Shown here: piece by piece, positions 3,512-21,404 of the stretch
Layout: each line of letters begins with the position of its first letter
How positions within the stretch are numbered: the stretch's first letter is position 1
From: Escherichia coli
GTDB lineage: Bacteria; Pseudomonadota; Gammaproteobacteria; Enterobacterales; Enterobacteriaceae
Reading direction: 5' to 3' (one strand)
NCBI RefSeq assembly: GCF_003334385.1
Contig: NZ_QOWN01000050.1
DNA length: 33,016 nt
Translations under genes and position numbers: made by a program
Notes under the pieces: generated by a model
Told to the model about the DNA's origin: nothing
What the model saw: the letters and a program-made list of their open reading frames with translations, nothing else
Database searches by the model: none

Positions 3512-4732
3512 TTAATTTTCCAGCAAATGCTGGAGCAAAATACCGTTGAGCATGGCGCGTTTTACCAGCGCAAAAGCGCCGATTGCCGAGCGGTGATCCA
3601 GCTCAGAACGTACCACCGGCAGATTAGTGCGAAACGCCTTCAGCGCCTGGGTATTAATGCAGCTTTCAATAGCAGGGAGCAGCACTTTATCGGCTTCGGT
3701 GATTTCACCGGCAATAACAATTTTTTGCGGATTAAATAAGTTGATAGCAATGGCGATGGTTTTACCCAGATGACGACCGACATACTCAATTACTTCCGAC
3801 GCCAGACTATCGCCTTTGTTCGCGGCTTTGCAGATAGTTTTGATGGTGCAGTCGTCCAGCGGCACGCGGCTCTGGTAGCCCTGCTTTAACAGATTCAACA
3901 CCCGTTGTTCAATGGCAGCGTTGGCAGCGATAGTTTCCAGGCAGCCAAAGTTGCCGCAGTGGCAGCGTTCACCCAGCGGTTCGACCTGAATATGGCCAAT
4001 TTCACCGACGTTGCCGTTGCGGCCAATAAAAATGCGCCCGTTAGAGATAATCCCGGCCCCGGTTCCGCGATGGACACGCACCAGAATGGAGTCTTCGCAA
4101 TCCTGACTTGCACCGAAGTAGTGCTCCGCCAGCGCCAGACTACGGATATCGTGACCAACGAAACAGGTCACTTTAAAACGTTCTTCCAGAGCTTCTACCA
4201 GCCCCCAGTTTTCTACCTGAATATGCGGCATGTAATGAATTTTGCCGCTGTCCGGGTCAACAAGCCCTGGCAGGATCACCGAAATCGCGATCAGCTCGCG
4301 CAGTTTGCGCTGGTAGCTATCAATAAACTGAGCAATGGCATTCAACAGGGCATGTTCCAGCGTTTGCTGGGTACGTTCCGGCAGCGGGTAATGTTCTTCT
4401 GCCAGCACTTTGCTGCTGAGATCAAACAGAGTGATGGTGGCGTCATGACGACCAAGCCGTACGCCGATTGCGTGGAAATTGCGGGTTTCGGTGACGATGG
4501 AGATAGCGCGGCGGCCCCCGGTGGAGGCCTGCTGATCAACTTCTTTGATCAGCCCGCGTTCGATAAGCTGACGCGTAATTTTGGTTACGCTGGCGGGGGC
4601 AAGCTGGCTTTGCTCGGCAATCTGAATCCGCGAGATTGGCCCGTACTGGTCAATCAGGCGATAAACCGCCGCGCTGTTAAGCTGTTTTACGAGATCAACA
4701 TTACCTATCTGAGCTTGTCCGCCTGGTGTCAT
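3512..4732 (-). CDS. nagC: ROK-family transcriptional repressor NagC, 406 aa
   Basis: 406-aa ORF with an N-terminal helix-turn-helix and the ROK sugar-kinase-like fold including the CHCGNFGC zinc motif; ATG at 4730..4732. Confidence 0.95.
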   Translation of the reverse strand: MTPGGQAQIGNVDLVKQLNSAAVYRLIDQYGPISRIQIAEQSQLAPASVTKITRQLIERGLIKEVDQQASTGGRRAISIVTETRNFHAIGVRLGRHDATITLFDLSSKVLAEEHYPLPERTQQTLEHALLNAIAQFIDSYQRKLRELIAISVILPGLVDPDSGKIHYMPHIQVENWGLVEALEERFKVTCFVGHDIRSLALAEHYFGASQDCEDSILVRVHRGTGAGIISNGRIFIGRNGNVGEIGHIQVEPLGERCHCGNFGCLETIAANAAIEQRVLNLLKQGYQSRVPLDDCTIKTICKAANKGDSLASEVIEYVGRHLGKTIAIAINLFNPQKIVIAGEITEADKVLLPAIESCINTQALKAFRTNLPVVRSELDHRSAIGAFALVKRAMLNGILLQHLLEN

Positions 4733-10942: not shown

Positions 10943-10973
10943 AGGAACAGACAAACAGTTTCAAACGCTAAAT

Positions 10974-11073
10974 TGCCTGATGCGCTACGCTTATCAGGCC
11001 TACATGATCTCTGCAATATATTGAGTTTGCGTGCTTTTGTAGGCCGGATAAGGCGTTCACGCCGCATCCGGCA
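10974..11073. repeat. RIP/BIME-type element
   Basis: TGCCTGATGCGCTACGCTTATCAGGCCTAC ... GCAATATATTGAG ... GTAGGCCGGATAAGGCGTTCACGCCGCATCCGGCA. Confidence 0.8.
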
Positions 11074-11093
11074 AGAAACAGCAAACAATCCAA

Positions 11094-11119: not shown

Positions 11120-11451
11120 TGCTTTTCTTCGCGAATTAATTCCGCTTCGCAATTTATCCATAAAATAAATTTAAAATAACAAAACATAATTAAATAAAAT
11201 GTAACCGCTTTCATCTTGCTGGAATTTCACGCTTTTATTCTTCTGCAAGCCTTTCAACCGCAAACTTAAGCCTTGTAACAAAAATCATCAAAATATGTGC
11301 GGTTGCTCATGTTCTTACATTCTGGTTACAGAAAGAGATTGATAATTCGCGTCGCGAAAAATAGTCTGTTCCTGTAGTCAGCGAGACTTTTCTCAACGCT
11401 ACTTTTTTAATTTTTATTTTTTCGCTGTTCACCTTTGGTGCAGCAATTTAT

Positions 11452-11464
11452 ACGTCAAAGAGGA
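11452..11464 (+). promoter_or_regulatory. ChiX sRNA pairing site overlapping the chiP Shine-Dalgarno
   Basis: ACGTCAAAGAGGA lies 8 nt upstream of the chiP ATG and is complementary to the UCCUCUUUGACG core of ChiX as I recall it. Confidence 0.5.
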
Positions 11465-11471
11465 TTAACCC

Positions 11472-12878
11472 ATGCGTACGTTTAGTGGCAAACGTAGTAC
11501 GCTGGCGCTGGCTATCGCCGGTGTTACAGCAATGTCGGGCTTTATGGCAATGCCGGAGGCTCGCGCCGAAGGATTCATCGACGATTCAACCTTAACCGGC
11601 GGTATCTATTACTGGCAGCGTGAACGCGACCGTAAAGATGTTACCGACGGCGACAAATACAAAACCAACCTTTCTCACTCCACCTGGAATGCCAACCTCG
11701 ATTTTCAGTCCGGTTATGCTGCTGATATGTTCGGCCTTGATATTGCTGCGTTTACGGCGATTGAAATGGCGGAAAACGGCGACAGCTCCCACCCGAACGA
11801 AATCGCGTTTTCAAAAAGTAATAAAGCCTATGACGAAGACTGGTCCGGCGACAAAAGCGGTATAAGCCTGTATAAAGCTGCGGCCAAATTTAAATACGGT
11901 CCGGTTTGGGCGAGGGCAGGTTACATTCAGCCAACTGGTCAAACGCTGTTAGCGCCGCACTGGAGCTTTATGCCAGGTACTTATCAGGGGGCGGAAGCCG
12001 GGGCGAATTTTGATTACGGCGATGCTGGTGCGTTGAGTTTCTCCTACATGTGGACCAACGAATACAAAGCGCCGTGGCATCTGGAAATGGATGAGTTTTA
12101 TCAGAACGATAAAACCACCAAAGTTGATTATCTGCACTCCTTTGGGGCGAAATACGACTTCAAAAATAACTTCGTACTGGAAGCGGCATTTGGTCAGGCG
12201 GAAGGGTATATCGGTCAATATTTTGCCAAAGCCAGCTACAAATTTGATATCGCCGGTAGCCCGTTAACCACCAGCTACCAGTTCTACGGTACCCGAGATA
12301 AAGTTGACGATCGCAGCGTCAACGACCTTTATGACGGCACCGCCTGGCTGCAAGCGTTGACCTTTGGTTACCGGGCGGCTGACGTAGTGGATTTGCGCCT
12401 CGAAGGCACCTGGGTTAAGGCTGACGGTCAGCAGGGATACTTCCTGCAACGTATGACTCCAACCTACGCTTCCTCAAACGGTCGCCTGGATATCTGGTGG
12501 GATAACCGTTCTGACTTCAACGCCAACGGCGAAAAAGCGGTCTTCTTCGGTGCGATGTATGACCTGAAAAACTGGAATCTTCCAGGCTTCGCCATCGGCG
12601 CTTCCTACGTTTACGCATGGGATGCTAAACTTGCGACCTGGCAGAGCAATCCGGATGCGTACTACGACAAAAACCGGACTATTGAAGAGTCTGCCTACAG
12701 CCTAGATGCGGTCTATACCATTCAGGACGGTCGCGCCAAAGGCACGATGTTCAAACTGCATTTCACCGAATACGACAACCACTCCGACATCCCAAGCTGG
12801 GGCGGTGGTTACGGCAACATCTTCCAGGATGAGCGTGACGTGAAATTTATGGTAATCGCACCATTCACCATCTTCTGA
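11472..12878 (+). CDS. chiP: chitoporin, OprD-family outer-membrane porin, 468 aa
   Basis: 468-aa ORF with a signal peptide ([32 protein letters not shown]) and a C-terminal aromatic residue (..FTIF), typical of a beta-barrel. Confidence 0.9.
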
Positions 12879-12927: not shown

Positions 12928-13254
12928 ATGAAAAAACTGATTCTCATCGCCATAATGGCATCGGGGCTGGTAGCTTGTGCGCAATCAACCGCGCCACAGG
13001 AAGACAGTCGTCTGAAAGAGGCATACAGCGCCTGTATCAACACCGCACAAGGTTCGCCAGAAAAAATTGAAGCCTGCCAGAGCGTGTTAAACGTGCTGAA
13101 GAAAGAGAAACAACATCAGCAGTTTGCCGACCAGGAAAGTGTACGCGTACTGGATTATCAGCAGTGTCTGCGTGCAACGCAAACCGGAAATGATCAGGCG
13201 GTGAAAGCCGATTGTGATAAAGTCTGGCAGGAAATACGCAGTAATAACAAATAA
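12928..13254 (+). CDS. chiQ: small lipoprotein ChiQ, 108 aa
   Basis: Lipobox LVAC in MKKLILIAIMASGLVACAQ; 49 bp downstream of chiP. Confidence 0.85.
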   Translation: MKKLILIAIMASGLVACAQSTAPQEDSRLKEAYSACINTAQGSPEKIEACQSVLNVLKKEKQHQQFADQESVRVLDYQQCLRATQTGNDQAVKADCDKVWQEIRSNNK

Positions 13255-13294
13255 GTGAGAGCTGTAACTCTCGCTTTTCTTATTTCCCTTGCAT

Positions 13295-18380: not shown

Positions 18381-18400
18381 ACGTATGACAAACACAGAAT

Positions 18401-18500
18401 TGCCTGATGCGCTACGCTTATCAGGCCTACGAGGATGGTGCAATATATTGAATTTAAGCGATTTTGTAGGCCGGATAAGGCGTTCACGCCGCATCCGGCA
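18401..18500. repeat. RIP/BIME-type element
   Basis: TGCCTGATGCGCTACGCTTATCAGGCCTAC ... GCAATATATTGAAT ... GTAGGCCGGATAAGGCGTTCACGCCGCATCCGGCA. Confidence 0.8.
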
Positions 18501-18549
18501 AAAACAACGAACACTTTGTCAACAAACTGAGTAGCTCAAGGAAATCCCA

Positions 18550-19856: not shown

Positions 19857-19989
19857 TTTCAAAGCATAAACCGATACCCAATACCGGTTTCAGTAATAAA
19901 ATGGCGAGGCCGGGCCGGATCCTGTTCCAGTTTTTGTCGCAGATGCCCCATATAATTACGCAAATAGTTGCTGTGTTCGATCGCGTTTA
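19857..19989 (-). pseudogene. 3' remnant of a kdpE-like response regulator (C-terminal winged-helix, about 44 codons)
   Basis: About 90 percent nucleotide identity to the 3' end of kdpE at 24195..24330, same orientation, in frame, with the stop conserved: LNAIEHSNYLRNYMGHLRQKLEQDPARPRHFITETGIGYRFML. No N-terminal receiver domain or start codon. I think K-12 annotates this as pseudogene ybfI but am not certain. Confidence 0.6.
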
Positions 19990-20044
19990 GACCCTACATC
20001 TGCCGGATGCGGCATAAATAACGAACTATTTGCCAACAAACAGA

Positions 20045-20083: not shown

Positions 20084-21404
20084 TTAACCGTGTTTATTTT
20101 TCAGTTCAAAGCGTGGTGATACCAGACCATACAGTGTCCAACCAAGGAAGGTCACGATGGAACCGTACAGCATGGCTTCTTCCCCGGATGAGTACAGCGC
20201 ATAAAAGCTATACATCGCGCCAACAAAAGCAACAAAGTTTGCAACTTTCGCTTTTGAGGGGGGCACATTAGCGACCTTCTGAATAATGACTAATGCCGCC
20301 ATTGACAGAATATACGGAATGATATTGGTCACCACGGCCAGGTTAACCAGCACGTTGAACTGACTGTTTAGCGACGGGCTAATGGTCATCAGTGCCAATC
20401 CACTCTGAATAATCACAATGGTCAACATTCCCTGCACCGGTGCATCCACTTTGGTTACACGGGAGAAAATTTTAGGGAAGTAGCCTTCATCAGATGAAGA
20501 TTTAAACACCTGGGCAATGGTGAACTGCCAGCCAAGTAGCGAACCGCAGCAGGACATCACCATCAGCGCCATAATGACTTTACCCACTTCCGGCGTGAAC
20601 ATCTGCGCGAAGGCCAGACCAAATGGTGCCGTTGAATTTGCCAGCTCCATATTTGGCACAATCCCGGCAATCACGTTGGTGGAGACGATATAAATCACCG
20701 CCGCACCTAACGTACCGCCGAGTACCGCGATTGGCACATTACGTTCCGGGTTTTCCACTACATCAGTATTCGCACACGCAGACTCCAGACCAAGAAAAGC
20801 TCACAGCGTCATAGCGATGGAAGAAACCTACCGCACTGAAGAACGGTGCATGATGCGGATTCCAGGAATCAACGTACAGCGTCGGGCTAAACCAGAACCA
20901 GCCAATAATGCACAGACCGACGACCGGAATAATGACCCCCCACACGGTAATGCTACTGATTTGCCCGGTAATGCGCGCACCACCAAAGTTAGCCACGGTA
21001 CAAATCCACAGCACCCCGATGGTCGCAAGACCAATCTGCACTGGCGACAAACTCGCGCCGAGCAGTTCGGTGCCGTAACCAACCGCCGAAATAGCAATCG
21101 CGACGTTAGCAATCAGCAGTGAGACGCCGTAGGTATAGTTCGCCATAAAGTTACCGGATTTACCGAAAGCATACTCGGCATAACCGCCCATACCGCCTGA
21201 TTTACGGCTGAACATACCGCATTTTGCGAATGCCCATGCCAGTGCCATTGAGCCTACGGCTGTCACCAGCCAGGAGATAATTGAGATTGTCCCGACTTCG
21301 GCAAGCTTTGTCGGCAGCATGATGATACCGGAGCCCATCATGTTGACCATCGTCAGTATGGTTAACTGAACGACGCCCATTTTGTTCGATTTAGCCTGAC
21401 TCAT
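20084..21404 (-). pseudogene. potE: putrescine-ornithine antiporter PotE, reading frame disrupted
   Basis: Two track ORFs in different frames (20763..21404 and 20084..20758) together cover the 439-aa PotE. The frame breaks after ..FFSAVG by one extra T in a T-run (+ strand AAA at 20824..20826), and the restored frame reads SSIAMTL-stop-AFLGLESACANTDVVENPERNV, with TGA (+ strand 20801..20803) where Trp is expected. Confidence 0.8.

Follow-up and report, generated by a model that had tools for sequence, protein, structure and literature searches.

ChiX target site in the leader of the chiPQ operon in a K-12-like Escherichia coli sequence

The window, by which we mean the whole stretch of 33,016 nt analysed here, carries the chiPQ operon of Escherichia coli together with its promoter region and leader (Table 1). 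The first gene encodes the chitoporin ChiP, which scores 843 bits against the NF047822 'chitoporin ChiP' model (cutoff 750) and differs from the K-12 protein by two substitutions, D248G and P387L. The second gene, chiQ, begins 49 nt after chiP; its product matched no NCBIfam model at E ≤ 1e-5 and was identified as ChiQ because of its 100% identity to the K-12 protein. Both coding sequences are uninterrupted, as had been claimed from the sequence alone, and 5425 of the 5426 complete E. coli genomes have the chiP–chiQ locus with no less than 95% identity, annotated there as chitoporin ChiP and the ChiQ/YbfN lipoprotein. The terminator-like hairpin that follows chiQ is probably the end of the operon.

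Table 1. Positions of the chiPQ features in the window
Feature	Coordinates	Strand	Description and basis
Putative chiP/chiZ promoter	11339-11367	+	-35 TTGATA 11339-11344; 17-nt spacer; -10 TAGTCT 11362-11367
NagC operator GATAATTCGCGTCGCGAAAAATA	11341-11363		Equals the 'ybfM proximal' NagC site, FITBAR Table 1 (PMC3098098)
chiP 5' UTR = sRNA ChiZ (b4808), ChiX sponge	11374-11471	+	98/98 nt identical to NC_000913.3 chiZ 708236-708333
Single-stranded U-rich tract, candidate Hfq rim contact	11403-11423	+	Unpaired in MFE and centroid folds
ChiX pairing site CGUCAAAGAGGA	11453-11464	+	12 bp with ChiX U45-G56; spans -19 to -8, counted from the ATG
Shine-Dalgarno core GAGG	11460-11463	+	Read from the sequence; wholly within the ChiX duplex; 8 nt before the ATG
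chiP CDS, chitoporin	11472-12878	+	468 aa, intact; ORF, RefSeq annotation, NCBIfam equivalog NF047822
C-rich, G-poor stretch, candidate rut	11604-11743	+	C 30-34%, G 15-17%; highest C-minus-G in the chiP transcript
chiQ CDS, lipoprotein	12928-13254	+	108 aa; identical to K-12 ChiQ
Terminator-like hairpin and T-rich tail	13253-13286	+	After chiQ; 9-bp stem with 4 G-C pairs; consensus scan

The window is collinear with positions 696863–729878 of E. coli K-12 MG1655 and, up to about 20.8 kb, a window coordinate equals the MG1655 coordinate minus 696862. The two sequences differ by 18 substitutions, 17 of which are transitions, and by two 1-nt indels, namely an insertion at 20824 and the loss of one A from the kdpF–ybfA spacer (between 32044 and 32045). 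The sequence is K-12-like, with a transition-and-indel spectrum reminiscent of a mismatch-repair-deficient or mutagenised lineage. The insertion at 20824 falls in potE (20084–21404, − strand), where GAAGAAACC replaces the GAAGAACC of MG1655; the frame shifts after about residue 193 and a stop is reached about 19 codons further on. The 61-mer that carries this insertion occurs in none of the 2643 matching complete E. coli genomes, and the frameshift represents either a pseudogene private to this sequence or a sequencing error in a homopolymer. The window also contains intergenic copies of a repeat of about 120–140 nt (10962–11087, 2537–2677 and 18385–18525; 85–91% identity, some copies inverted), the first of which lies between glnS and the chiP promoter and the second of which includes an Rfam ES036/CssrF match (2597–2639). 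A further pair of segments of about 145 nt, 90% identical and in direct orientation, is found at 19858–20002 and 24194–24338, one overlapping the pseudogene ybfI and the other kdpE at its 3' end.

The promoter given in Table 1 for chiP/chiZ is a putative one, positioned by eye from the annotated 5' end (11374), which lies 7 nt further downstream. A consensus promoter scan did not report a chiP promoter, and the proposed −10 hexamer matches TATAAT at three of six positions. The NagC operator overlaps the proposed −35 and the start of the −10, and a perfect palindrome within it, TTCGCG-T-CGCGAA, lies between the two hexamers. Repression of chiP by NagC has been reported (PMC4098024). The nagC gene is itself in the window (3512–4732, − strand), as is the nagE–nagB operator TTTAATTTGCGATACGAATTAAA from the same published list of sites (PMC3098098), which is present in the nagB–nagE spacer.

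The whole 5' untranslated region of chiP coincides with the sRNA ChiZ. As an sRNA, ChiZ would be a discrete transcript of about 90 nt that is ended by Rho at the first codon of chiP; northern blots of it have been reported, and the Term-seq 3' end mapped at MG1655 708334 (PMC7815308) corresponds to window position 11472, at that codon. The leader is predicted to fold into hairpins at 11374–11402 and 11424–11444, with a U-rich single strand between them and an unpaired 3' tail in which the ChiX site is found. We note that the U-rich tract is a candidate contact for the rim of Hfq, which binds the targets of class II sRNAs such as ChiX (PMC5606850). The T run at 11413–11422 is mostly 71–92% conserved, with positions 11416–11417 at 44–52%, against a mean of 59% for the leader.

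In the 3' tail of ChiZ, the 13-mer ACGTCAAAGAGGA is read at 11452–11464 on the + strand and is separated from the chiP ATG at 11472 by the 7-nt spacer TTAACCC (11465–11471). This 13-mer had been described as complementary to the core of ChiX, given as UCCUCUUUGACG, and as lying immediately upstream of the chiP ATG. That core proved to be right, as it equals nt 45–56 of the 84-nt sRNA gene defined both by the Rfam sroB family and by the published transcript. The complementarity holds for 12 of the 13 bases (11453–11464), but A11452 faces G57 and is left unpaired; likewise, the placement upstream of the ATG at the ribosome-binding site stands, although the 7-nt spacer makes the wording 'immediately' slightly loose.

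ChiX, RybC, MicM and SroB are four names for one sRNA (PMC4098024). A ChiX sequence was used as a probe only, and of the 5426 complete E. coli genomes searched with it 5423 gave one match each, in the ybaK–ybaP spacer. The 84-nt gene in this spacer (locus L001, 1501–1584) matches the Rfam sroB model (RF00368) over its full length, scoring 82.1 bits where the gathering threshold is 44, and agrees in every letter with the ChiX transcript given in PMC5606850. Its seed is single-stranded in the predicted fold of ChiX itself as well as in the consensus structure of Rfam, and AAAUUCCUCUUUGAC is invariant in the sroB consensus. The chiX gene is absent from the 33-kb window, in which an Rfam scan returned three tRNAs and one ES036 match only; its presence in the source genome, at a locus about 200 kb away, may be assumed from its near-universality in E. 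coli.

Full-length ChiX was folded jointly with leader fragments of several lengths, and the opening energies of both partners were calculated. At every fragment length the cofold contained 12 consecutive Watson–Crick pairs between 11453–11464 and ChiX 45–56, an uninterrupted complementarity to the ChiX seed (UCCUCUUUGAC[G]), and with the longest fragment (11350–11550) five extra pairs were predicted beside the 12. The net gain of the cofold was −17 to −20 kcal/mol, with −18.6 kcal/mol for the helix alone, and the opening costs were 0.9 kcal/mol for ChiX and 1.7–2.6 kcal/mol for chiP; in these models the pairing sites of both partners are predicted to be accessible, that is single-stranded. 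The duplex between ChiX and 11440–11480, which had been set beforehand as the test of the complementarity, was predicted to be stable and to consist of exactly the expected pairs. Hybrid-only calculations on long targets returned 'duplexes' of −38 to −46 kcal/mol that involve the whole sRNA and very large loops; these are artefacts and were discarded because intramolecular structure is ignored.

Within the window there is a single exact copy of the ChiX-complementary 12-mer, and nowhere else on the two strands of the 33 kb does a 12-mer complement any part of ChiX. The calculated chance expectation for an exact match to this 12-mer is about 0.004 in 66 kb. When up to two mismatches are allowed there are four matches against 2.5 expected, and only the exact match is therefore notable. 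With the ChiX seed the leader has a hybrid energy of −21.0 kcal/mol, whereas 2000 dinucleotide-shuffled leaders gave −9.7 ± 2.3 kcal/mol (z = −4.9) and only one of them was as good; shuffling the seed instead of the leader gave z = −4.5.

We conclude, with a probability of about 0.97, that ChiX (SroB/MicM/RybC) targets the leader of the E. coli chiPQ operon at 11453–11464. In this work the sequence was confirmed, and the specific duplex, the accessibility of both partners, the conservation of the site and its identity with K-12 were computed; nothing contradicts this reading. The view that the site serves to silence the chitoporin, also put forward in the sequence-only reading, is supported by a leader 100% identical to that of K-12, where both the pairing and the effect of a chiX deletion are published. 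Pairing at this site has been documented by compensatory mutations, as stated in PMC7815308, which cites Figueroa-Bossi 2009 and Overgaard 2009, and the activity of chiP reporters in E. coli goes up 30- to 74-fold when chiX is deleted (bioRxiv 10.1101/2021.05.11.443692). In vitro, ChiX, chiP RNA and Hfq form a ternary complex within 20 s (PMC5606850), and the chiP RNA annealed in that study is identical to window positions 11374–11489.

The site is taken to work in the way documented for K-12, the Hfq dependence, translational repression, decay, Rho polarity, decoy and ChiZ function all being taken from the literature. ChiX would be made constitutively from its distant locus, and Hfq would help the single-stranded seed (nt 45–56) to anneal to the leader across the Shine-Dalgarno GAGG. 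The duplex would block 30S binding, chiP would remain untranslated and its mRNA would decay, in keeping with reports that ChiX at the chiP ribosome-binding site inhibits translation and triggers decay (PMC6582626; PMC4098024). The untranslated transcript would also bare a C-rich stretch early in chiP, on which Rho could load and terminate transcription, leaving chiQ silent as well; it has been described that the loss of ribosomes bares an intragenic rut, that Rho terminates inside chiP and that chiQ is silenced by polarity (PMC6582626). A candidate for this rut, from its base composition, is the stretch at 11604–11743, which is closely followed by the Rho termination region listed at MG1655 708624, or window 11762 (PMC7815308 Supplementary file 2). 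The arrangement here is one of a C-rich stretch early in the reading frame, upstream of the mapped Rho region, with a promoter-less gene downstream. When chitosugars are available the chb operon is induced, and pairing with the chbBC spacer of its transcript leads to the destruction of ChiX (PMC6582626; PMC4098024); under these conditions, with ChiX removed and NagC repression lifted, chiP would be expressed. The same leader, when it ends at the ATG, is ChiZ, of about 98 nt, which would sponge ChiX through this site.

Another possibility is that 11453–11464 is mainly the active part of the ChiZ sponge, which titrates and destabilises ChiX, and not a site for the repression of chiP. The leader is the annotated chiZ and includes the site, ChiZ is associated with Hfq, and overexpressing it gives more chiP mRNA and less ChiX, an effect that depends on chiX (PMC7815308); moreover, a fragment of the chiP ribosome-binding site is Hfq-bound and accumulates without PNPase (PMC7145675). 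However, a sponge role is complementary to repression and does not exclude it, ChiZ is most abundant when ChiX is absent (PMC7815308), and the extent to which chiP is derepressed on deletion of chiX implies that repression is dominant under standard conditions. We therefore consider it unlikely that sponging is the main function of the site.

The conservation of the ChiX target site was computed over 75 distinct leaders from 80 species-level loci in about 20 genera of Enterobacteriaceae; these loci were retrieved by a ChiP protein query and hence were unselected on the motif. GTCAAAGAGGA (11454–11464) is 98% conserved; the figure is 59% for what remains of the leader and 53% for the spacer that separates the site from the ATG. 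The GAGG core is invariant or nearly so in the 80 species, and GTCAA, the 5 nt upstream of what a Shine-Dalgarno sequence needs, is 93–100% conserved; in this sample the site is conserved across the Enterobacteriaceae beyond the Shine-Dalgarno requirement. The edges of the conserved block coincide with the invariant ChiX seed, U45–C55. The full 12-mer is found in 49 of the 80 loci, 6–8 nt from the ATG, and the 41 nt around the site are identical in 4791 of 5412 E. coli genomes.

It could be argued that this block is conserved for translation alone, as a Shine-Dalgarno sequence with an enhancer or standby element, and that it matches ChiX by coincidence. AGAGGA, which forms the 3' half of the site, is a Shine-Dalgarno sequence, and such sequences are conserved anyway; in addition, the helix is without covariation proof. 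Against this, the conservation takes in GTCAA and has the same limits as the invariant ChiX seed, and both the rarity of a perfect 12-nt match and the shuffle test speak for a true pairing. The compensatory-mutation proof cited in PMC7815308 means that published genetics in effect refutes a role in translation alone, which we regard as very improbable.

The question of covariation centres on position 11453, which is C in 51, A in 16 and T in 8 of the 75 distinct leaders and whose partner, ChiX position 56, is the sole seed-adjacent base that is variable in Rfam. The chiX genes of other genera were fetched through the neighbouring gene ybaK, and those of Superficieibacter sp. 1612_C1, Kluyvera and Buttiauxella contain GACGGGCC, that is G56. 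No covariation between 11453 and ChiX 56 was seen, as Superficieibacter sp. 1612_C1 (the genome of chiP locus L008) and Kluyvera have A in the leader and keep G56. The ChiX seeds of Escherichia, Kluyvera, Superficieibacter and Buttiauxella are identical, and across these genera the terminator stem is identical too and the 5' hairpin drifts. The seed does not vary among the genera sampled, and the lack of covariation support for the helix is thus uninformative and not counter-evidence to ChiX targeting. The conserved interaction is 11 bp, with a twelfth pair, C–G, added in Escherichia and Salmonella and in most Citrobacter, Klebsiella, Enterobacter and Buttiauxella.

With G56 invariant, a C at 11453 gives 12 bp, a T gives 11 bp and a possible G–U, and an A gives 11 bp. 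Perhaps the duplex edge is an evolutionary dial by which ChiX silencing of the chitoporin is tuned, and partly lost, lineage by lineage, a suggestion that we make tentatively from these differences and from those described next; it concerns other genera, and the site in the E. coli window itself is canonical. At the opposite edge, where many genera gain pairs, the equivalent of 11465 is A, not T, in 26 of the 75 distinct leaders (among L040–L073), which would lengthen the pairing by 1–3 bp to ChiX U44 and often A43; in E. coli this position is a U–U mismatch.

Divergent cores (CGTCCAGAAGGA, CGTCTAGAAGGA, CGTCAATAAGGA and CGTCAATGAGGA) were observed in six Kosakonia loci (L045, L052, L056, L057, L067 and L081) and in Leclercia sp. 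UBA7405 (L048), with the changes, two to three in Kosakonia, falling within the ChiX core that is invariant elsewhere, between 19 and 8 nt ahead of the chiP start codon. When computed against the E. coli type of ChiX, the duplexes of the five Kosakonia leaders with CAGAAGGA or TAGAAGGA cores are weakened to −13 to −14 kcal/mol, the median being −21, and those of L081 and L048 are predicted at −17.0 and −19.8 kcal/mol respectively. There was no Kosakonia YbaK among the 120 homologues listed, and Kosakonia chiX was not retrieved by that route. If the Kosakonia seed is unchanged, control of chiP would be weakened or lost; if it is UCCUUCUGGACG, this would be a case of true compensatory evolution. 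The existence of three different Kosakonia site variants argues against a single compensated ChiX.

A second ChiX target at 31749–31779 on the + strand, which would pair with ChiX nt 36–58 and has a slightly better crude hybrid energy (−22.9 to −24.6 kcal/mol against −21.0 for chiP), was rejected as most likely a chance match and hardly credible as a target, as its helix is broken by a 7-nt bulge, its net gain in full context is −12.0 kcal/mol against −19.6 for chiP, and it lies antisense to kdpA (30197–31870, − strand), where no mRNA is expected.

The chiPQ operon of the window carries the full canonical regulatory set, with the NagC operator, the ChiZ leader, the ChiX site, the candidate rut stretch and intact coding sequences. 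The sequence-only account of the leader had recognised the ChiX site but had omitted ChiZ, the Rho termination with chiQ polarity and the NagC operator. The ChiX–chiP–chbBC–ChiZ circuit is a textbook model for occlusion of a ribosome-binding site by an sRNA, for target-mimic decoys, for sRNA-triggered Rho polarity and for sponges derived from 5' UTRs. The ChiX–chiP site described here is the canonical, experimentally characterised and already known one, in a sequence nearly identical to K-12. An intact circuit is what is expected of an E. coli K-12-like sequence, and the value of the analysis lies in correct annotation and not in new biology.

Among known systems, the site is the same element as that of ChiX (MicM/SroB/RybC) and chiP (ybfM) in E. 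coli K-12 and Salmonella, the leader being that of K-12 throughout with the same 12-nt site and seed; the regulatory region is without difference from K-12, the two substitutions noted above being in the ChiP protein. The 7-nt spacing to the start codon is also that of Salmonella enterica diarizonae (L012). The same leader is exactly the chiZ described by Adams et al. (2021; PMC7815308; b4808), in which the regulation is reversed and the leader acts on the sRNA. The chbBC intergenic decoy, which belongs to the chb operon and lies outside the window, likewise pairs with ChiX in a target-mimic-like manner, but pairing with chbBC destroys ChiX whereas pairing with chiP silences the mRNA. Finally, Spot 42 and galK resemble ChiX and chiP in that an sRNA-imposed translation block bares a Rho site and leads to polarity in the operon (PMC6582626); they differ in the sRNA and operon concerned and in the position of the site, which is internal to the operon for Spot 42 and in the leader for chiP.
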